The notes: generated from the letters alone by a model not told the origin. Numbered from the stretch's first letter, positions 2,761 to 57,014 are shown. The stretch is 64,000 nucleotides of DNA from Erythrobacter sp. (GCA_041662105.1 JBAZTF010000002.1:133377-197376); one strand, 5' to 3'. Translations and numbers: made by a program.

Positions 2761-3336
2761 ATGTCGCGGCCAAGGATCAGCATTTTTGCGCGCTACCCCG
2801 AGCCCGGCAAGGCGAAGACCCGCCTGATCCCGGCGCTGGGCGCGGACGGCGCGGCGCGGGTCTATACCCGGCTGCTCGAAGGGACGGTCGCGCAGGCACG
2901 CGCGGCGGGCCTGCCGTTCGAGCTGCGCGTGACCGGGGAGCGGAGCGAAGCGTTCCGCGAATGGCTGGGCGACGATTTCGCCGTGGTCGATCAGGGCGGG
3001 GGCGATCTCGGCGCGCGCATGGCCCGCGTGCCCGCACCCGCGCTGCTGATCGGCAGCGATTGTCCCGGCCTCACCGCGCCGATCCTGCGCGCGGCGGCGG
3101 CCCAACTGGCAGAGCGCCGGGTGGTGATCGGTCCGGCCAGCGACGGCGGCTATTACCTGATCGGATTGCGTGAGCCGATGCCGTTCCTGTTCGAGGACAT
3201 GGAGTGGAGCACGCCGCAGGTTTTCGGCGAAACGCTCGGGCGGCTGACCGCCCACGGCATCGCCCCGGCGATCCTGCCCGAACTGTCCGACGTCGACCTG
3301 CCCGAAGACCTCCTGCCGTGGCCGCAGCTGCGGTGA
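2761..3336 (+). CDS. DUF2064/TIGR04282-type (CofC-like) transferase
   Basis: IFARYPEPGKAKTRL, DQGGGDLGARM, LIGSDCP, VIGPASDGGYYLIG, DVD. Confidence 0.85.
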   Translation: MSRPRISIFARYPEPGKAKTRLIPALGADGAARVYTRLLEGTVAQARAAGLPFELRVTGERSEAFREWLGDDFAVVDQGGGDLGARMARVPAPALLIGSDCPGLTAPILRAAAAQLAERRVVIGPASDGGYYLIGLREPMPFLFEDMEWSTPQVFGETLGRLTAHGIAPAILPELSDVDLPEDLLPWPQLR

Positions 3337-4055
3337 GCGTTGCGATCCTCGTTCCCGCGCTCGACGAGGAGGCCGCGCTGCCCGCGCTGGTGGCGCATCT
3401 TGCCCGGCTCGATCCCGCCCCGGCGGACATTCTGCTGGTCGATGGCGGCAGCGCCGACCGCACGCTGGCGATCGCCCGGGCCGCCGGCTGGCGCGTCCTG
3501 CCCAGCGAACGCGGACGCGCCGTGCAGGTCAATCGCGGGGTCGCCGAAACCCGGGGCGAACTGGTCTGCGTGGTCCATGCCGACACGCTGCCGCCGCTGG
3601 ACATGGTCGCGGTGATCGAAGCGACGCTGGCCGATCCGAAGACCGCCCTTGCCAGCTTCACGCCGATGATCCGGGGTCCCGGGAAAATCCGCTGGGGCAC
3701 CACCGCGCACAACTGGATCAAGACCTGGTATGCCCCGCTGATTACCCGTCCGCACCTGTTCGTGCGCGGTGTGCGCCTGCTGTTCGGCGACCATGCGATG
3801 TTCTTTCGCAAGGCCGATTTCCTCGCCGTGGGCGGGTGCACCGCGGGCGATGCGGTGATGGAGGAGGCCGACCTGTGCGTGAAGTTCGCGCGGCTCGGGC
3901 GGATCCGCATGGTGCCGCGCTGGGCCGTCACCTCGGACCGGCGGATCGCCGCCTGGGGGCCGCTCAGGGCCAATTGGATCTATTTCAAGATCGGGATGCT
4001 GTGGGCCTTCGGAATGCGCGAGCGCATGGCGCGCCATTACCCCGACATCCGCTGA
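3333..4055 (+). CDS. TIGR04283-type GT2 glycosyltransferase
   Basis: VPALDE, VDGGSAD, GRAVQVNRG, HADT, FGDHAMF, MEEADL, TSDRR; GTG start overlaps the upstream TGA. Confidence 0.85.
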   Translation: MSVAILVPALDEEAALPALVAHLARLDPAPADILLVDGGSADRTLAIARAAGWRVLPSERGRAVQVNRGVAETRGELVCVVHADTLPPLDMVAVIEATLADPKTALASFTPMIRGPGKIRWGTTAHNWIKTWYAPLITRPHLFVRGVRLLFGDHAMFFRKADFLAVGGCTAGDAVMEEADLCVKFARLGRIRMVPRWAVTSDRRIAAWGPLRANWIYFKIGMLWAFGMRERMARHYPDIR

Positions 4056-4058
4056 CGC

Positions 4059-4226
4059 CCAGTGATTGCGTGCCGGATGGAAACATCCGGTGGCGCGGGG
4101 ATCACGGCCAACAAAGAATGGGCCGGAGCCGTTGCGGTTCGATCATAACCCGAGCAACTCTAGTTGCTTGTTTCACCGTGATTTCCTGGTCGCCAGATGT
4201 TTCCATCCGGCTCGAAATCACTCTAG
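4059..4226. repeat. Composite palindromic repeat locus 1: degenerate module A, module B, inverted module A
   Basis: 4160-4226 is the reverse complement of CTAGAGTGATTTCGAGCCGGATGGAAACATCTGGCGACCAGGAAATCACGGTG..., which recurs at about 16.7, 21.6, 23.9 and 33.1 kb. Confidence 0.9.
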
Positions 4227-4722
4227 CCGAAAGCATGCGCATAGGTGACGGCGCCGCACGGGGCCGGACCGGCGAGGACCAGCCGCTGGAAATATTCGGG
4301 CGGCGGGCCGGGATAGGTCAGCGCGGGATCGTGCTCGAAGCCGAAGCGGCCGTAATAGTCGGGGCTGCCGAGCAGGACGATGCCCTTTGCCCCTTGTGCT
4401 TGCAGGTCGGCGATGCCGCGACGGATCAGCGCCGATCCGATGCCCTGTCCGTGCAGGTCGGGCCATACGCTGGCCGGGCCAAGGCCGAACCAATGCGCGC
4501 TCCCGTCGGCGATCGTCACCGGCGAAAAGGCTATATGGCCGGCGATCCGCCCGGCATCCTGCGCCACCAGCGACAGCGCCAGATCGCCATCGGCGCGCAG
4601 TCGGTCGACGATGCGGGGTCGCTGCCGTCGCTATAGGGAACGCGGCGAAAGGCCGCCTCGGTCAGCGCATGTATGGCCGCCTCATCGCCCGCCCGTTCGG
4701 GCCGGATCGCGATCGCGCTCAT
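4223..4722 (-). pseudogene. GNAT N-acetyltransferase (YhbS-like) with a one-base frameshift near 4615-4619
   Basis: The N-terminal frame MSAIAIRPERAGDEAAIHALTEAAF...YSDGS and the C-terminal frame (P)RIVDRLRADGDLALSLVAQDAGRIAGHIAFSPV...GLGPASV...GIGSALI...YYGRFGF join if one base is added at the G4 run. Confidence 0.8.
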
Positions 4723-12360: not shown

Positions 12361-13935
12361 ATGGGTGAGATTTTCCTGGGTGCTACCGAACAGGGCGAAC
12401 GGCAGGTCCTGCTGCTCGGCCAGGCGAACCGCCACGGTCTGATCGCGGGCGCGACCGGCACCGGCAAGACGGTGACGCTGCAAGGCCTTGCAGAAAGCTT
12501 TTCCGCCAACGGCGTGCCGGTGTTCCTCGCCGACGTCAAAGGCGACCTGTCGGGCATCGCCATGTCGGGATCCGCGCAGTTCAAGCATGCCGACAAGCTC
12601 GAAGGCCGCGCGAAACAGCTGGGCATGGATGATTATGCCTATGCCGACAATGCGGCGGTCTTCTGGGATCTCTACGGCGAACAGGGCTTCCCGATCCGCA
12701 CCACCGTGTCGGAGATGGGGCCGCTGCTGCTCGCCCGGCTGCTCGACCTCAATGAAACGCAGGAAGGCGTGCTCAACATCGCCTTTCGCTATGCCGACGA
12801 ACAGGGCCTGCTGCTGCTCGATCTGGGCGATTTGCAGGCGATGCTCGCCCACACGGCGGAAAATGCCGGCGCGCTTTCGGCGAAATACGGCCATGTCACC
12901 AGGGCCAGCGTCGGCACGATCCAGCGCCAGCTGCTGAGCTTCGAAAGCCAGGGCGCGGATATGTTCTTCGGCGAACCCGCGCTGGAGATCGACGATTTCC
13001 TGAAAGTGGACGGGCAGGGCCGTGGGGTGGTCAACATCCTCTCGGCGCAGAAGCTGATGCAGGGCCCCAAGCTCTACGCCACTTTCCTGCTGTGGCTGCT
13101 CGCCGAACTGTTCGAGACGCTGCCCGAGGTCGGCGACCCGGAGAAGCCGAAGCTGGTGTTCTTCTTCGACGAGGCGCACCTGCTGTTCGACGATGCCCCC
13201 GATGCGCTGGAGGACAAGGTCGAGCAGGTCGTGCGGCTGATCCGGTCCAAGGGCGTGGGCGTCTATTTCGTCACCCAGAACCCGATCGACATTCCCGAAA
13301 GGATCGCGGGCCAGCTGGGCAACCGCATCCAGCATGCGCTGCGCGCCTTCACCCCGCGCGACCAGCGCGCGATCAAGGCGGCGGCGGAGACCTTCCGCAT
13401 CAACCCCGATCTCGACGTCGCGCAGGCGATCACCGAACTCAGGGTGGGCGAGGCGCTGGTCTCGACGCTCGACGGGGATGGCGCGCCCTCGGTGGTTCAG
13501 CGCACGCTGATCAAGCCGCCGCATTCGCGGCTCGGCACCGTGTCCGAAAAGGAGCTGGCGATCGTCAATTCGGTGAGCGATCTCGACGGCAAATACGACA
13601 CGGCGGTCGACCGCGAAAGCGCCGAGGACGTGCTTGCCGCGAAAGCCGCCGATGCCGCCGCCACGGCGCAGGAAGTGGCCGAGAAGGGCAGCGAGGAAGT
13701 GGGCAAGCGCGCGCGCAAGTCCACCTCGCTGTGGGAGCGGGCAGGCAAGGCGGCGATGGGCGCGGCGGCGGGCTCCGCCGCCAGCATCGCGGCCGGGGCG
13801 ATTCTCGGCAAGAAGAGCAGGGCCAGCCCGATGAAAACCGCCGCCACGGCCGCCGCGGGCACCATCGCCACCGGTTTCGGAGGGGCGCTTGCGGGTCGTT
13901 TCGTGCGCAACCTGATCGGCGGATTGATGCGCTGA
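12361..13935 (+). CDS. DUF853 / HerA-like (YjgR) ATPase
   Basis: [55 protein letters not shown]. Confidence 0.88.
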
Positions 13936-14033
13936 ATTGCATTTGGTCGGCAGCCGATGGCTGTCGGTCGAACTCTTGCCTTGACAGGCGGCGCCTGCGG
14001 GCAGGGATCATGCGCCTATCTGCGGAGTTCATA

Positions 14034-16707
<2,674 letters not shown>

Positions 16708-16712
<5 letters not shown>

Positions 16713-16836
16713 TTTCGAGCCGGATGGAATCATCTGGTGGCCAGGAAATCACGGTAAGACAAGACTCCAGAGTGCTTGCCGACTTTGATGCAATCAAAGC
16801 CGGCAAGCACTCTAGGGTCAGGACCCATTACCCTAG
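16708..16836. repeat. Composite repeat locus 2: module A, module C and a 25-bp CTAG-bounded mini-module
   Basis: AGTGATTTCGAGCCGGATGGAATCATCTGG...GAAATCAC; AGTGCTTGCCGACTTTGATGCAATCAAAGCCGGCAAGCACTCTAG; CTAGGGTCAGGACCCATTACCCTAG. Confidence 0.9.
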
Positions 16837-17801
16837 ATGAGGCCCGCGAGCGGGCTGGAGGGGTCGGCGTATTTGCGCGTTGCCATGCGGCCTGCCAGAT
16901 AGGCCTCGCGTCCGGCCTCGACCGCCAGCTTCATCGCGCGGGCCATGCGCAGCGGGTCTTTCGCCTCGGCGATGGCGGTGTTCATCAGCACCCCGTCGCA
17001 GCCGAGCTCCATCGCCACCGCGGCATCGGAAGCCGTGCCCACCCCGGCATCGACCAGCACCGGCACGCTGGCGCCTTCGACGATCAGGCGGATGGTCACG
17101 CGGTTCTGGATGCCCAGACCCGAACCGATCGGCGCGCCCAGCGGCATCACCGCAACCGCGCCCGCATCCTCGAGCTGCTTCGCCGCGATCGGATCGTCGA
17201 CGCAATAGACCATGGGCAGGAAGCCCTCGCGCGCCAGCACCTCGGTCGCCTTGAGCGTCTCGCGCATGTCGGGATAGAGCGTGCGCGCCTCGCCCAGAAC
17301 CTCGAGCTTGACCAGGTCCCAGCCGCCCGCCTCGCGCGCCAGCCGCAGCGTGCGGATCGCCTCGTCGGCGGTGAAACAGCCGGCGGTATTGGGGAGGTAG
17401 GTGATTTTCTTCGGGTCGATATGGTCGGTCAGCATCGGCGCCCCGGGGTCGCTGACATTGACCCGGCGCACCGCCACGGTGACGATTTCGGCTCCGCTCG
17501 CCTCGAGCGCGGCGGCATTCTGCGCGAAGTCCTTGTACTTTCCCGTGCCGACGATCAGGCGGCTGTTGAAGGTGCGGCCCGCAACCGTCCACCTATCGCC
17601 CTGCCCGCCACCGACGAAATGGACGATCTCGAGCACGTCGCCATCGGCCAGCGCATGGTTCGCCAGATCGCTGCGCGGAGCGATCATGCCATTGTGCTCG
17701 ACCGCGACCCTCGCCGGGTCGAGCGCGAGCTCGCGGACGAGGTCGGCCACGGTGACGGCGACGGTGCGGCGGGGCTCGCCATTGACGGTCAGGGCAATCA
17801 T
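16833..17801 (-). CDS. thiG: Fused ThiS-ThiG (sulfur carrier / thiazole synthase)
   Basis: ThiS-like N-terminus (VNGE...VAVEHNG...EIVHFVGGG), then [32 protein letters not shown]. Confidence 0.93.
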
Positions 17802-21111: not shown

Positions 21112-21641
21112 TGGCCGACACCAACACCACCACTGGCGACACCGTCACCGATCTCGCCGATCTGAAGGATATCGCCGAGGGCGTGCCCCAGGGCGATGCT
21201 GCCGAGATCGCCCGCACCGCCGAGGTTCCCCTGCGCGAGCAGGAACTCGACAAGCAGGGCCGCGCCTATGCCACCGGCCGCCGCAAGGACGCCACCGCGC
21301 GCGTCTGGCTGAAGCCCGGCACCGGCAAGGTCACCGTCAACGGTCGCGACCAGGAAACCTACTTCGCGCGCCCGACGCTGCGCCTGGTCATCGACCAGCC
21401 CTTCGCGATCACCGATCGCCAGGGCCAGTACGACGTCGTCGCCACCGTCAAGGGCGGCGGTCTTTCGGGCCAGGCCGGTGCGGTCAAGCACGGCATCGCC
21501 CAGGCGCTGTCGAAGTACGAACCGGCGCTGCGCGGCACGGTCAAGGCCGCCGGCTTCCTGACCCGCGACAGCCGCGTGGTCGAACGCAAGAAGTACGGCC
21601 GCGCCAAAGCCCGCCGCAGCTTCCAGTTCTCGAAGCGCTAG
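21111..21641 (+). CDS. rpsI: 30S ribosomal protein S9
   Basis: [50 protein letters not shown]. Confidence 0.97.
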
Positions 21642-21805
21642 AGTGATTTCGAGCCGGATGGAATCATCCGGCGACCAGGAAATCACGGTTAAACAAGAAA
21701 CTAGAGTGATTTCGAGCCGGATGGAATCATCTGGCGGTCAGGAAATCACGGCAGGCAAATTTAACTGGAGTCGTTGCGGTTCGATCAGGGCCGGAACGAC
21801 TCCAG
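21638..21805. repeat. Composite repeat locus 3: two tandem module A copies (63-bp period) plus module B
   Basis: CTAGAGTGATTTCGAGCCGG starts at 21638 and 21701; CTGGAGTCGTTGCGGTTCGATCAGGGCCGGAACGACTCCAG at 21765-21805. Confidence 0.92.
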
Positions 21806-21831
21806 AGCACGATCTTCCCGATCGCCGAAGG

Positions 21832-21859
21832 GGCGGTTGCGCAAGCGGCCGCCGTTTTT
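21832..21859 (+). terminator. Intrinsic terminator of rplM-rpsI
   Basis: GGCGGTTGC-GCAA-GCGGCCGCC followed by GTTTTT. Confidence 0.7.
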
Positions 21860-21890
21860 GCTTGCGCATCCGCCCCTGCCGACCCGCCGG

Positions 21891-22094
21891 TCAACGCTGG
21901 AGCATCATGATCCCCCAGGATAGCCCCGCGCCGATGAAAAACAGCGGCCAGGACCACCAGAAGCGGTAATCGGCGATCTGCGCCATATGGATCGCCATCT
22001 GCCCGCCGTGGCTGCCTTGCGAGCCGATCACCAGGGAAACCACACCCGAAAGGATCGCACCGAGGGCGACTGCCTTGACCGCTTCCATTGCCAT
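21891..22094 (-). CDS. Small hypothetical membrane protein
   Basis: MAMEAVKAVALGAILSGVVSLVIG...FWWSWPLFFIGAGLSWGIMMLQR; two hydrophobic segments. Confidence 0.6.
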   Translation of the reverse strand: MAMEAVKAVALGAILSGVVSLVIGSQGSHGGQMAIHMAQIADYRFWWSWPLFFIGAGLSWGIMMLQR

Positions 22095-22182
22095 GCTCCG
22101 TGTGGACCTGCCGCGATCATGACGCCCGTGCCTTTCCGCAAGGGTGCGGAACGGCGTTTGCGGGTACGGTTTCCGGTTGCGG

Positions 22183-23043
22183 TTAATGGACCGGTGGATC
22201 GATCCGCGGGATCTGGCGGACCGGGGCCACCGGCTCGCCCGGTTCGCGGGGTGGGAGCGCATTTTCGGGCACATCGTCGATCTGCATGTCGGCCGTGTCG
22301 ACGTGCTGCAGGTTGCGAACCGTCACCGACAGGCTATTGCCGTCCCAGATGATCTCGTTGAAGCTGGGCGGGGTCGAACGCGTCCTTTGCGACAGCGTTC
22401 CCGCACCGATCATCCGCACCGGGCCCGCGGGCGTCGCCTCCATGATGTCGAAGGCATCGTGGACATGGCCCGAAAGGACCGCCTCGACCTTGCGCGCCGC
22501 CAGTTCGGCGAGAGCCCGCTCGCCATGCCGGGTCAGCGCGGTGCCGCTGGTTCCCACCTCGCGCAGCGGGTGATGCGCCGCGACCAGCACACGGGTTCCT
22601 TGCGGAAGCGCATCGATCATCGCCAGGCACGCCTCCAGCGCGGCGCGGCTGACCCATCCCTTCGACCAGTTGAGCCGCGGCTGTGCCGGCACCGCCGTCT
22701 TGAGCGGTACGATCGCCAGCGAGCCGAGATCGAGCTCGCGCTCGACCTTTTCCGCCATGCCGCGGAACCGGCGATACGGGGCAAAGAAGCGCTCGACAGG
22801 GTTGAAATAGGGCATGTCGTGATTGCCCACCTCGACCGTCACCGGGGCCTCCAGCGAGTTGATCCAGGCGGTCGCCGCGGCGAATTCGCGATGCCGCGCG
22901 CGCATGGTCAGGTCGCCGGTGATCGCCACCGCATCGGGCCGCCGCAAGGCGATCTCGCGCTTCGCCCAATCGAGCGCGCGGGTGCTCTCGAGGCCGAAAT
23001 GGATGTCCGAAAGGTGGAAGATGCGACGCAGGTCAGAAGCCAT
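22183..23043 (-). CDS. Calcineurin-like metallophosphoesterase
   Basis: HLSDIHFG, ITGDLT, VGNHD, HHPL, LSGHVH. Confidence 0.9.
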   Translation of the reverse strand: MASDLRRIFHLSDIHFGLESTRALDWAKREIALRRPDAVAITGDLTMRARHREFAAATAWINSLEAPVTVEVGNHDMPYFNPVERFFAPYRRFRGMAEKVERELDLGSLAIVPLKTAVPAQPRLNWSKGWVSRAALEACLAMIDALPQGTRVLVAAHHPLREVGTSGTALTRHGERALAELAARKVEAVLSGHVHDAFDIMEATPAGPVRMIGAGTLSQRTRSTPPSFNEIIWDGNSLSVTVRNLQHVDTADMQIDDVPENALPPREPGEPVAPVRQIPRIDPPVH

Positions 23044-23117
23044 GGCCGGTCGCTAGCAGATTGTCCGGGCATGCGACCACAGCGAATGCGAGGCCGCGCC
23101 GTCCGACCGCTTGCCGC

Positions 23118-23381
23118 TCAGACCCGGCCACCGACGGGCAACCAGCAGAACAACCCGTTGGCCAGCGTATATCCGCCATAAAACCGGCCCGTGGGCGACC
23201 AGCCGCCGGCACTCTGGAATCATTGCGGCAAACAGGACCAGGAATTCCAGCAGCAGCGCGATACGCCCCCCCGGCGCAATGCCGGCGGCAGCGAAGCGAC
23301 AACCGGATGGCCGCTTTCCAGCATGGCCTTGCCGAGTGCGAAATTCAGCACGCCGCAGACAAAGAGCAGGCCCAGCACCAT
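23118..23381 (-). pseudogene. Small membrane protein interrupted by two compensating frameshifts
   Basis: Frame 1 reads MVLGLLFVCGVLNFALGKAMLESGHPVVASLPPALRRGG, shifts at the C7 run (23266-23272) to RIALLLEFLVLFAAM, then returns to frame 1 for SAGGW...FYGGYTLANGLFCWLPVGGRV*. The total span is 264 nt. Confidence 0.55.
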
Positions 23382-23582
23382 CGACGGATGGCATAGTCCG
23401 GGCACCCGCAGATTGCCAATCGCGGTTCGTCGACTGCCCTGCGCCGCCCATCCAATGCCCGTGTCGCTCGTCGATCAGCGTTAGTGTTTACAGTTGTAGC
23501 CATGTAATACAGGTCCTGCGGAGGGTCCTCCCCCAATCAGTCCCCCAAAACCGGGACCCTCCGCAGACCCGGAGGAAAACCC

Positions 23583-23897
23583 ATGAAATCCACCCTCGCC
23601 CTGATCGTCGCGGCCGGCGCGGCCGGCCTTGCCGCCCCCGCCGCCGCCATTCCCGCGAATGCCGAACCCTATAGCATGCGCGTGAAATATTCCGATCTCA
23701 ACCTCGCGACCCCCGAAGGTCTCGCCCACCTCGAGCGCCGGATCGACAACGCCGCGCGCAAGGTGTGCGGCTTTGAACGCAGCGTAACCGGCACCCGCCT
23801 GCGCAGCCCGCAGGTCGACGCCTGCCGCGAAAATGCCAAGGCGAAGGCCATGGCCCATGTCGCCGCGGTCATCAAAGAGCGTACGCGCGGCGGCTAG
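23583..23897 (+). CDS. UrcA family exported protein
   Basis: Signal peptide, VKYSDLNLATPEG...LERRIDNAARKVCG...C; strong GGAGG RBS. Confidence 0.88.
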   Translation: MKSTLALIVAAGAAGLAAPAAAIPANAEPYSMRVKYSDLNLATPEGLAHLERRIDNAARKVCGFERSVTGTRLRSPQVDACRENAKAKAMAHVAAVIKERTRGG

Positions 23898-24104
23898 AGT
23901 GATTTCGAGCCGGATGGAATCATCTGGCGGCCCGGAAATCACGGTAAAACAAGAATCTGGAGTGCCGACTTTGATGCAATCAAAGGCGGAAGCACTCTAG
24001 AGTGATTTCGAGCCGGATGGAATCATCCGGCGGCCCGGAAATCACGGTAAAACAAGAATCTGGAGTGCCGGCTTTGATGCAACCAAAGCCGGCAAGCACT
24101 CTAG
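23894..24104. repeat. Composite repeat locus 4: tandem (A+C)x2, about 104-bp period
   Basis: CTAG at 23894, 23997 and 24101 delimits two near-identical A+C units. Confidence 0.93.
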
Positions 24105-24110
24105 CCCTAC

Positions 24111-24154
24111 TGGGCCCCGGCCGAACGCAGTCCCTTGGCCGGGGTCGTCTTTTT
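24111..24154 (+). terminator. Intrinsic terminator downstream of the UrcA gene and repeat
   Basis: CCCCGGCCGAA...TTGGCCGGGG followed by TCGTCTTTTT. Confidence 0.6.
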
Positions 24155-24192
24155 GCAAAATCGGGATTTGCCGTGCCGCGCGGCAGGCTGGA

Positions 24193-32697: not shown

Positions 32698-33068
32698 GCG
32701 CCGCCCCGGCAGACCTCGACAAGGCCCGTGCCGCGCTGGCCAGGATCGGCGGGGCGACGGTCGAGCGGCAGGTCTTCCTGTGCGCCATGTCGGAAAAGCA
32801 GAAATGCTGCCGGCGCGAGGAGGGCGAGGTGGCGTGGAACTATCTCAAACGGCGGATGAAGGAGCTCGGCCTCGTCGGGCCGCGCGGCACCGTCCAGCGA
32901 ACCAAGGCCGACTGCCTGCAGGTGTGCGAAGCGGGGCCGATCGCGGTGGTGTGGCCCGACAACGTCTGGTACCATTCCTGCCGTGAAGACGTGCTCGAGG
33001 CGATCATCCAGCGCCATTTGATCGGTGGTGAACCGGTCGAAGAGTTCCGCCTGCTCCCGGCTGGTTAG
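32694..33068 (+). CDS. Thioredoxin-like [2Fe-2S] ferredoxin domain protein
   Basis: VFLC...[27 protein letters not shown]. Confidence 0.85.
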
Positions 33069-33171
33069 AATGGTTTCGAGCCGGATGGAATCATCTGGCG
33101 ACCAGGAAATCACGGTGAACCAAGACTCTAGAGTGCTGACTTTGATGCAATCAAAGCCGGGAGCACCCTAG
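33065..33171. repeat. Composite repeat locus 5: module A plus module C
   Basis: TTAGAATGGTTTCGAGCCGGATGGAATCATCTGGCGACCAGGAAATCAC...CTCTAGAGTGCTGACTTTGATGCAATCAAAGCCGGGAGCACCCTAG. Confidence 0.9.
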
Positions 33172-56628: not shown

Positions 56629-56961
56629 TCAATCGCCTTCGGGTTCCACCGGCACACTCGGCGCGGCCCGCTGGATTTCGGCATAGGTGGCGCGCGCCGC
56701 GTCGCAGGCCAGCCGATTGCCCTTCTGGCACAGGTCGAGCTGTTCTTCATATTGCCGCTGGAGCTTGCCGAGCCGCTCTTCGCGCTGGCGAATTTCGCGC
56801 CCGCGCTTCTCGTCGGCCTCGGACTGGCTGGTCGTGGCGACATCGACCCCCTTGCCGACCACGCGCACCGGCGCTGTGGCGACATCGAAGGCTGCCTTGG
56901 CAAGACACCCCTGCAGCATGAGTGCGGTGGGCAGGAGGGCAAAAAGAGCTAGGCGGCGCAT
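56629..56961 (-). CDS. Hypothetical lipoprotein
   Basis: MRRLALFALLPTALMLQGC lipobox, coiled-coil C-terminus. Confidence 0.7.
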   Translation of the reverse strand: MRRLALFALLPTALMLQGCLAKAAFDVATAPVRVVGKGVDVATTSQSEADEKRGREIRQREERLGKLQRQYEEQLDLCQKGNRLACDAARATYAEIQRAAPSVPVEPEGD

Positions 56962-57014
56962 GGGATTTCCTTCCATGCACCGCCTAGCGGAAATCGGGTG
57001 AGCCGTCGATGAAC

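Follow-up and report, generated by a model that had tools for sequence, protein, structure and literature searches.

Two-hairpin repeats at stop codons in an Erythrobacter genome segment and their likeness to the CIR, Bru-RS and RIME elements of Alphaproteobacteria

The 64,000-nucleotide stretch of Erythrobacter sp. DNA analysed here (GCA_041662105.1 JBAZTF010000002.1:133377-197376; hereafter the window, meaning the whole stretch) carries a family of palindromic repeats that are joined at CTAG-like tetramers and stacked into arrays at five loci. The repeat unit has its left end on a TAG or TAA, and very frequently this triplet is the stop of a co-oriented gene. Compensatory changes preserve the unit's first hairpin, whose pairing is better on one of the strands, and arrays are gained or lost between close relatives. 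In kind the repeats belong with the CIR, Bru-RS and RIME elements and are not a new kind, although the anchoring to stop codons and the stacking of copies are poorly documented for such repeats. The explanation we favour, to which we give roughly even weight for and against, is that they are non-autonomous mobile elements of this alphaproteobacterial two-hairpin type that insert beside TAG or TAA.

The unit measures about 105 bp (103-107 bp) and is made up of a first hairpin, termed A, followed by an A-rich linker and then by a second hairpin that varies, arranged as (C)TAG, AG[T/C]G, hairpin A, linker, CT[A/G]G, second hairpin (B, C or another type) and CTCTAG. An earlier note, made from this DNA alone, had described a module A of about 63 bp; its copies are there, but the module is really a 45-nt imperfect hairpin followed by the conserved A-rich linker GGTAAAACAAGAAT. 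Hairpin A is built from an outer stem (GTGATTTC/GAAATCAC), an inner stem (CCGGATG/CATC[C/T]GG) and a GAAT loop, and the second hairpin is nearly perfect, with the foot CT[A/G]G-AG[T/C]G...C[A/G]CT-CTAG. The ends of the unit read (C)TAG...CTA(G) and are symmetric over just 5-8 bp, and the junction within a composite is usually the degenerate CTGG, not CTAG. When folded as RNA the units show two arms, A and either B or C, separated by an unpaired linker of 14 nt; z-scores range from -4.8 to -8.3, and the A-B unit is more stable on the + strand (-53.5 kcal/mol) than on the other (-39.4 kcal/mol).

Conservation of the fold was assessed on an alignment of 34 A copies from many genomes. Compensatory pairs occur in the outer stem, where GTG/CAC is replaced by GCG/CGC in six copies and by GCA/TGC in two; ten cells of the alignment are changed on both sides, a count that none of 500 shuffles reaches, and 97.6% of the cells are paired, compared with 29-49% when the partners are slid. 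G-U pairs outnumber A-C pairs by about 29 to 3, with one polymorphic position dominating this count, which argues that the hairpin is favoured on the A strand, be it as RNA or as single-stranded DNA.

A search for the 26-nt core of A, GTGATTTCGAGCCGGATGGAATCATC, with up to three mismatches returned eight matches in the 64 kb and none in 100 shuffles, and a repeat finder and profile searches agree on the same five loci with the same module order. The loci and the module arrangements given in the earlier note were thus confirmed, as were the joints between modules, which are CTAG, CTGG or CCAG. The arrays and core matches are as follows.

4055-4226, + strand: array 1, A'-B-A(inverted), with a degenerate A' at 4057-4123 (+), B at 4118-4163 and an inverted A at 4160-4226 (-)
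16704-16836, + strand: array 2, A-C(-D), with A at 16704-16770, C at 16764-16815 and the mini-palindrome D at 16812-16836
21638-21805, + strand: array 3, A-A-B, with A at 21638-21704 and 21701-21767 and B at 21761-21805
23894-24104, + strand: array 4, A-C-A-C, repeating every 103 bp, its CTAGs being at 23894, 23997 and 24101
33065-33171, + strand: array 5, A-C, with A at 33065-33131 and C at 33125-33171
4062, 16709, 21643, 21706, 23899, 24002 and 33070, + strand: matches to the A core (up to three mismatches)
4196, - strand: match to the A core (up to three mismatches)
16783, 23969, 24072 and 33140: the four matches to the C core in the 64 kb
4131 and 21773: the two matches to the B core in the 64 kb

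CTAG itself is scarce, with 22 sites in the window where 48 would be expected from a Markov model and 199 from base composition, and half of these sites (11 of 22) lie inside the arrays. Contigs from unrelated metatranscriptomes match array 4 from 23893-23899 onwards and stop at 24000, which is independent evidence that the unit ends are at the CTAGs. The hexamer that opens every module, CTAGAG, is also present at four of the 11 CTAGs outside the arrays (35165, 42356, 46704 and 62730); these four may be favoured targets or traces left by units since lost.

Within the window B and C always stand 3' of A, and neither was found without it. The same family was recovered from 81 further loci across Sphingomonadales, where the exact A 22-mer is found at 30 loci in one-per-species genomes and on 51 metagenome contigs. 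At least six genera share this 22-mer; those carrying it include Novosphingobium, Sphingobium, Hephaestia, Sphingosinicella and Rhizorhapis, and it occurs in addition in metagenome-assembled genomes (MAGs) labelled just Sphingomonadales, Pseudomonadota or bacterium. Each genome has its own variant, with A, a linker particular to it and a single type of second hairpin, and it follows that the composite multiplies and not the single module. The proposal in the earlier note of several independent modules resembling transposable elements of the miniature inverted-repeat kind (MITEs) is therefore not upheld. Sequence like that of D follows A elsewhere in the source metagenome as well. In that metagenome the repeats have 50-90 times the single-copy depth and contigs break at them.

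Of some 80 independent copies of A, 29 start exactly on the stop codon of a co-oriented, coding-like open reading frame (ORF), and eight more copies lie within 6 nt of a stop codon. All copies in the window lie between ORFs. The first CTAG of array 3 supplies the TAG stop of rpsI (21639-21641) and that of array 4 the TAG stop (23895) of a 104-aa ORF (23583-23897), while the TAG at 33066-33068 in array 5 ends a coding-like ORF with a G+C content by codon position of 0.71/0.47/0.85; the inverted A of array 1 starts in the same way on the stop of a GNAT gene. Minus-strand TAG stops are found at two array ends, 4223 and 16833. By crude gene calls, (C/T)TAG sites that are stop codons are occupied five times and free once, whereas the intergenic CTAG sites of the window are occupied in no case and free in six. 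The neighbouring features are listed here.

3204-4055, + strand: family 2 glycosyltransferase gene left of array 1; its TGA stop at 4053 is 4 nt before A'
4223-4567, - strand: GNAT acetyltransferase gene right of array 1; its TAG stop (4223-4225) is part of the terminal CTAG
13092-16712, + strand: M1 peptidase gene; its TGA stop (16710) is inside A of array 2
16833-17798, - strand: thiS-thiG; the TAG stop is the last CTAG of array 2, in module D
21832-21863, + strand: native intrinsic terminator of rplM-rpsI, 3' of array 3 and kept in relatives that lack the array
24113-24155, + strand: terminator-like hairpin with a T-run, 3' of array 4 and common to Erythrobacter mangrovi
56949-56987, no strand assigned: solo 39-bp palindrome with CTAG at both boundaries (CTAGGCGGCGCATGG...CCATGCACCGCCTAG), located at the TAG that ends an ORF at 56629-56952

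The last of these was overlooked in the earlier list of five loci, all of which are present; judged by its sequence, it is possibly a lone module of the second-hairpin type.

The units are biased in orientation. Among the ends of 28 composites the A end lies on a stop codon about 15 times and the second-hairpin end four times, in the latter case on the stop of a convergent gene, and five of six arrays are built head to tail. Symmetric cut-and-paste transposition does not predict this bias. Truncated A copies at four loci (L012, L013, L016 and L028) were considered as possible ends of insertion sequences (ISs) and rejected, as they too are placed after stops and have no adjoining transposase. 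One of them, L016, shares a Novosphingobium MAG contig with L045, where a truncated A sits on a TAG stop and is separated by some 130 nt from an opposite-strand tRNA gene. About eight A copies lie 9-10 nt from an opposite-strand start codon, beside a Shine-Dalgarno-like TAGG. At seven loci (L019, L030, L039, L041, L047, L057 and L008) the CTAG at the start of A is 9-10 nt from an opposite-strand ATG and directly beside a Shine-Dalgarno-like GGAG or AGG, which means that the unit also comes to lie just upstream of the ribosome-binding sites of divergent genes.

Comparison with relatives supports the claim of the earlier note that the arrays are insertions. The window is part of a 409-kb contig and is contained in a groundwater metagenome. 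Its ribosomal protein S9, for which no identical record turned up, shares 94% identity with the E. mangrovi protein, and gene order is the same in that species from 16.8 to 31 kb, breaking at array 2 and so defeating an orthologous comparison of that array. In the window rpsI ends in TAG and is followed by the 164-bp array, 27 nt and the terminator; in E. mangrovi it ends in TAA, followed by 28 nt and the terminator with no array between, and the site is likewise empty in two relatives from metagenomes, L032 (TAA) and L033 (TGA). The thiG and 101-aa orthologues carry TGA at the codon position where the window has TAG. Overall the stop codon is unchanged in 10 of 12 repeat-free orthologues and changed in all three genes bounded by a repeat. 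The single CTAG that the earlier note expected at an empty site is seen in Novosphingobium humi, where it is the stop codon, opposite a filled site in Novosphingobium KACC 22771 (ATCTAG|AGCG...), with the right flank of the empty site not alignable to the filled one.

Plasmids of Rhizobium leguminosarum and R. etli offer filled and empty alleles of a relative of the family at three loci with 91-96% identity. At the ABC-ATPase/RelE locus the filled allele reads CAACTAA|AGCATG...CGCTTTAG|GAGGCAG and the empty one CAACTAA|GAGGCAG, a pair that permits a single register, with no duplication and with insertion right after the TAA stop. The hexosaminidase/AraC locus has a 102-bp element after the stop, in a register that is ambiguous by 2-3 nt. 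At the MFS locus it is the second-hairpin end that adjoins the stop, which is TAA in the filled allele and TGA and TAG in empty ones. Taken over seven loci, filled alleles without exception carry the family's own stop codon, TAG in Sphingomonadales and TAA in Rhizobium, whereas only three of 12 empty alleles do so.

Overlaying the metagenomes of relatives on the window in search of empty alleles was too noisy, given the many relatives and the contigs that break at repeats. A weak profile match in E. mangrovi (14791-14804) proved to be fumarase coding sequence, and a 66-nt spacer after the 101-aa gene of E. mangrovi (L085, 12586-12660), considered as a decayed A, was not detected by the A profile. 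This spacer begins with TGATTGATTTGCAGC and ends with CACAGAACTAG and resembles the ends of module A by eye.

It is proposed that an enzyme supplied in trans would recognise the foot of the hairpin on one strand and insert the unit immediately 3' of a TAG or TAA, duplicating little or none of the target. The enzyme would most likely be a single-strand HUH/Y1 transposase, as for REP/RAYT or IS200/IS605. As each unit ends in a (C)TAG of its own, every insertion would provide a fresh target, and arrays such as A-A-B and A-C-A-C could then grow head to tail. Stop codons would be favoured because TAG and CTAG are rare in a genome of 66% G+C and because insertion there spares the protein. Insertion 3' of an existing TAG or TAA accounts for the orientation, for the head-to-tail arrays and for the clean Rhizobium pair. 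The idea of the earlier note that elements pile into one another at a regenerated target is plausible as far as the stacking and the CTAG-like end of each unit are concerned; the IS5-type mobilisation that went with it is not sustained.

Several observations weigh against this proposal. Duplication of TA at YTAR fits most junctions equally well, and even for the clean Rhizobium pair it costs just one extra mismatch; that pair, which provides the evidence for a clean junction, moreover comes from a Rhizobium relative of the family. Insertion simply 3' of TAG does not predict that filled alleles always carry their own stop codon when only three of 12 empty ones have it. The distances from hairpin to end differ from those of IS200/IS605. 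A partner transposase was not encountered: a Pfam scan of 26 window ORFs returned none, which bears out in part the statement of the earlier note that the window lacks one; no autonomous element of 0.5-3.5 kb flanked by inverted repeats was found in 580 kb of related loci; no transposase adjoins the plasmid matches; and a tblastn search of the same 580 kb with an E. coli RAYT sequence, a weak test, gave no match.

The replication strand is a further difficulty. GC skew is too flat to assign the strands, but between 40752 and 50942 hemE, a UPF0093 (hemJ-like) gene, rho, mnmE, mnmG, rsmG and parB follow in a row, with an A+T-richer gap at 43.7-45.4 kb between rho and mnmE. The neighbourhood hemE-rho-mnmE-mnmG-parB is the usual surroundings of the alphaproteobacterial chromosome origin, and from these genes we infer an origin at 40-45 kb. 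All five arrays lie to the left of this region, with A on the + strand in seven of eight copies. If the origin is so placed, the paired strand of A would lie on the leading-strand template in seven of the eight, the opposite of the preference of IS608.

The strongest competitor, though a less likely one in our estimation, holds that the repeats are classical MITEs moved by a DDE transposase of IS630 or IS5/IS427 type (for example Brucella IS711), with TA duplicated inside YTAR or CTAG. The element would then be GAGTG...CACTC, whose terminal G and C rebuild TAG on both sides and thereby allow a TAA or TAG stop to survive the insertion. The ends are indeed flanked by TA, and the bases beside them (left C>T>G,A; right G>A) form a symmetric YTAR pattern. 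Loci L010, flanked by TTAG...CTAA, and L020, flanked by CTAG...CTAA, do not fit the 4-bp CTAG duplication of IS5 type put forward in the earlier note, and the ABC-ATPase/RelE pair shows no duplication; both loci fit a duplication of TA. This model explains most flanks, and the rpsI stop, TAG in the window where relatives have TAA, has changed as it predicts. Also in its favour, IS711 causes a TA duplication within YTAR and has a preference for Bru-RS repeats (PMC2266754, PMC3163539), and CIR termini carry TA (PMC2229807). What it leaves unexplained is the uneven orientation (15 to 4), which a symmetric target would not lead one to expect, and the thiG and 101-aa orthologues, whose TGA stops have no TA. 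It also has to accommodate an inverted terminal repeat of a mere 5-8 bp, a mismatch beside the supposed duplication in the clean Rhizobium pair, extra mutations for left ends CCAG, TCAG and CAAG and right ends CTGA, CTGG and CTTG, and a search of 580 kb of loci and 72,556 plasmids in which no IS with matching ends was found.

Less probable again is that the units are selected for a role in RNA, opening the 3' untranslated region (UTR) so that their hairpins stabilise the mRNA or tune termination or ribosome release, the manner of their spread being then a secondary question. REP elements close to stop codons in E. coli are reported to have such effects on mRNA. In keeping with this the units are co-oriented with the upstream gene and sit between its stop codon and its native terminator, G-U pairs are retained on the sense strand, stop-codon sites are occupied where other intergenic CTAG sites are free, and units occur within longer metatranscriptome contigs, although such contigs are strandless and may include DNA. 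Close relatives, however, do without units at the same genes, rpsI included, about half of the copies are away from stop codons, and about eight lie 9-10 nt upstream of an opposite-strand start codon.

It is very improbable that the repeats are DNA-level sites for the CcrM (GANTC) methylase, as has been proposed for CIR, acting on the timing of replication or transcription and not being mobile DNA. GANTC is 8.6-fold denser in the arrays than elsewhere (15.2 versus 1.76 per kb), GAATC extends over A's apical loop in 27 of the 34 aligned copies, and the same feature is part of the description of CIR (PMC2229807). Array 1 nevertheless contains no GANTC at all, the loop is GAAAC in the other seven copies, the Rhizobium relative of the first hairpin has no GANTC either, and methylation does not explain the position at stop codons, the orientation or the differences in presence and absence.

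That the units are look-alike intrinsic transcription terminators is scarcely credible: they are G+C-rich hairpins 3' of genes, often between convergent ones, but no T-run follows them, an identity of 85-100% across unlinked loci and genera is not expected of terminators, and the conserved native terminators further downstream of arrays 3 and 4 (21832-21863 and 24113-24155), being shared with relatives, show that the repeats are not the terminators. The segment 21773-21864, which takes in module B's 3' half as well as the rpsI terminator, gives a weak Rfam match to the Bradyrhizobiaceae small RNA (sRNA) BjrC68 (22 bits against a threshold of 39), and copies of the repeat may have seeded some alphaproteobacterial 'sRNA' families.

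Features that seem worth following are the anchoring to stop codons with its orientation bias, the apparent rewriting of stop codons and the family link across two orders. In the 30 years since CIR, Bru-RS and RIME became known, we know of no mechanism found for their spread and no accepted role. A more far-reaching and rather doubtful proposal, which we rank slightly below the DDE model, is that a superfamily across Alphaproteobacteria is moved by a site-specific system that aims at the 3' boundary of ORFs and writes its own stop codon. If true, this would be a mode of transposition harmless to the host gene, possibly giving each target gene a structured 3' UTR. The genomes of Rhizobium plasmids hold many filled/empty pairs, from which the chemistry of insertion is solvable by comparison alone. 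In practice the units break metagenome assemblies, change annotated stop codons and create false small-RNA predictions (RF02600, BjrC68).

Literature searches on these sequences, and on sphingomonad MITEs or REPs, found nothing specific. The REP/BIME elements and their RAYT transposases are alike in that they are short extragenic hairpins with a conserved NTAG just 5' of the stem, in their recognition on one strand, which for the window units is a proposal, and in forming mosaic arrays with a preference for the 3' ends of genes. RAYT cleaves at a CT adjoining the hairpin (PMC8266576), and the window units have CT there. The invariant GTAG of REP/RAYT is not found, the base that opens NTAG being C in some 60% of copies, T in some 20% and G in fewer than 10%. 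REP and inverted REP alternate in BIMEs whereas the window units run head to tail, and unlike a REP the unit consists of two unlike hairpins and a linker; no RAYT gene was found in the 580 kb searched.

Correia/NEMIS and RUP elements, of IS630 type, share the length (about 100-150 bp), the TA ends, the highly folded transcript and the location near genes, and mobilisation of RUP in trans has been attributed to IS630-Spn1 (PMC2229807). They have terminal inverted repeats of 9-26 bp and form one long end-to-end stem, in contrast to the two arms, the 5-8 bp of end symmetry, the orientation bias and the lack of a partner IS in the window units. The PATEs, derived from IS200/IS605, have a hairpin near each end, no inverted terminal repeats and strand specificity, and insert 3' of a short specific sequence without duplication. 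The window hairpins differ from those of PATEs in being unlike each other and lying 0-5 nt from the ends, with no TnpA or TnpB nearby, and the apparent choice of strand relative to the probable origin is opposite.

A close likeness is to CIR, the CcrM-associated intergenic repeat of Caulobacter, which is described as an element of about 110 bp with two arms and a linker and GANTC at a terminal loop (Chen and Shapiro 2003, per PMC2229807), with TA termini and no terminal inverted repeat, strictly intergenic and conserved among alphaproteobacteria, Brucella included (PMC2229807). Every one of these traits recurs in the window units, which are likened here to the description of CIR: the size and the two-arm fold, the GANTC loop in most A copies (array 1 apart), the TA termini without a long inverted repeat, the intergenic location, and the conservation between species, the core being common to a Brucella consensus. 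Beyond the description of CIR, the window units have CTAG joints, A-A-B and A-C-A-C stacking, a swappable second hairpin, the position at stop codons and the occurrence in Sphingomonadales.

Membership by sequence is judged from the Rfam consensus. At gathering thresholds Rfam gave no match to the window repeats, and RF02600 (BASRCI27, the Brucella sRNA CI27) scored 20.5 bits against a threshold of 59.8 (E = 0.017 in a 271-nt search). Its consensus nevertheless contains AGCCGGATGGAAACATCCGGCG, which agrees with the A core in all but one of 23 bases (22 of 23; E = 3.7e-8 in a 334-nt search). The linker is the same (CACGAAAACAAAAG in RF02600, CACGGTAAAACAAGAA in the window), the foot of the second hairpin corresponds (CTAAAGCG and CTAGAGCG, respectively), both aligning with high posterior probability, and the consensus is laid out as A-X-inverted A, as in array 1. 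It also matches 137 plasmids of Rhizobium, Sinorhizobium, Agrobacterium and Ochrobactrum; from these matches we infer that RF02600 is a copy of Bru-RS or RIME. Two Rhizobium copies follow the same grammar as the window units and start on a stop codon, with a TAA stop, hairpin 1, GTAAAAACAAAGAG and CTAAAGCG...CGCTTTAG between convergent genes. RF02600 and the Rhizobium relatives differ in the outer part of hairpin 1 and in having TAA/TTAG joints in place of CTAG. The relatives in Rhizobium, Sinorhizobium and Agrobacterium are probably RIME or what in S. meliloti are called the 'AB, C motifs', and Bru-RS elements measure 103-106 bp, against the 103-bp period of the window units. The earlier note had regarded a match to a described family in the same fixed arrangement as telling against its reading, and this applies in part, as the anatomy fits CIR, by its description, and the Brucella and Rhizobium repeat behind RF02600. 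Overall, the common hairpin core, linker and hairpin foot suggest that CIR, Bru-RS and RIME form one superfamily that reaches into Sphingomonadales.

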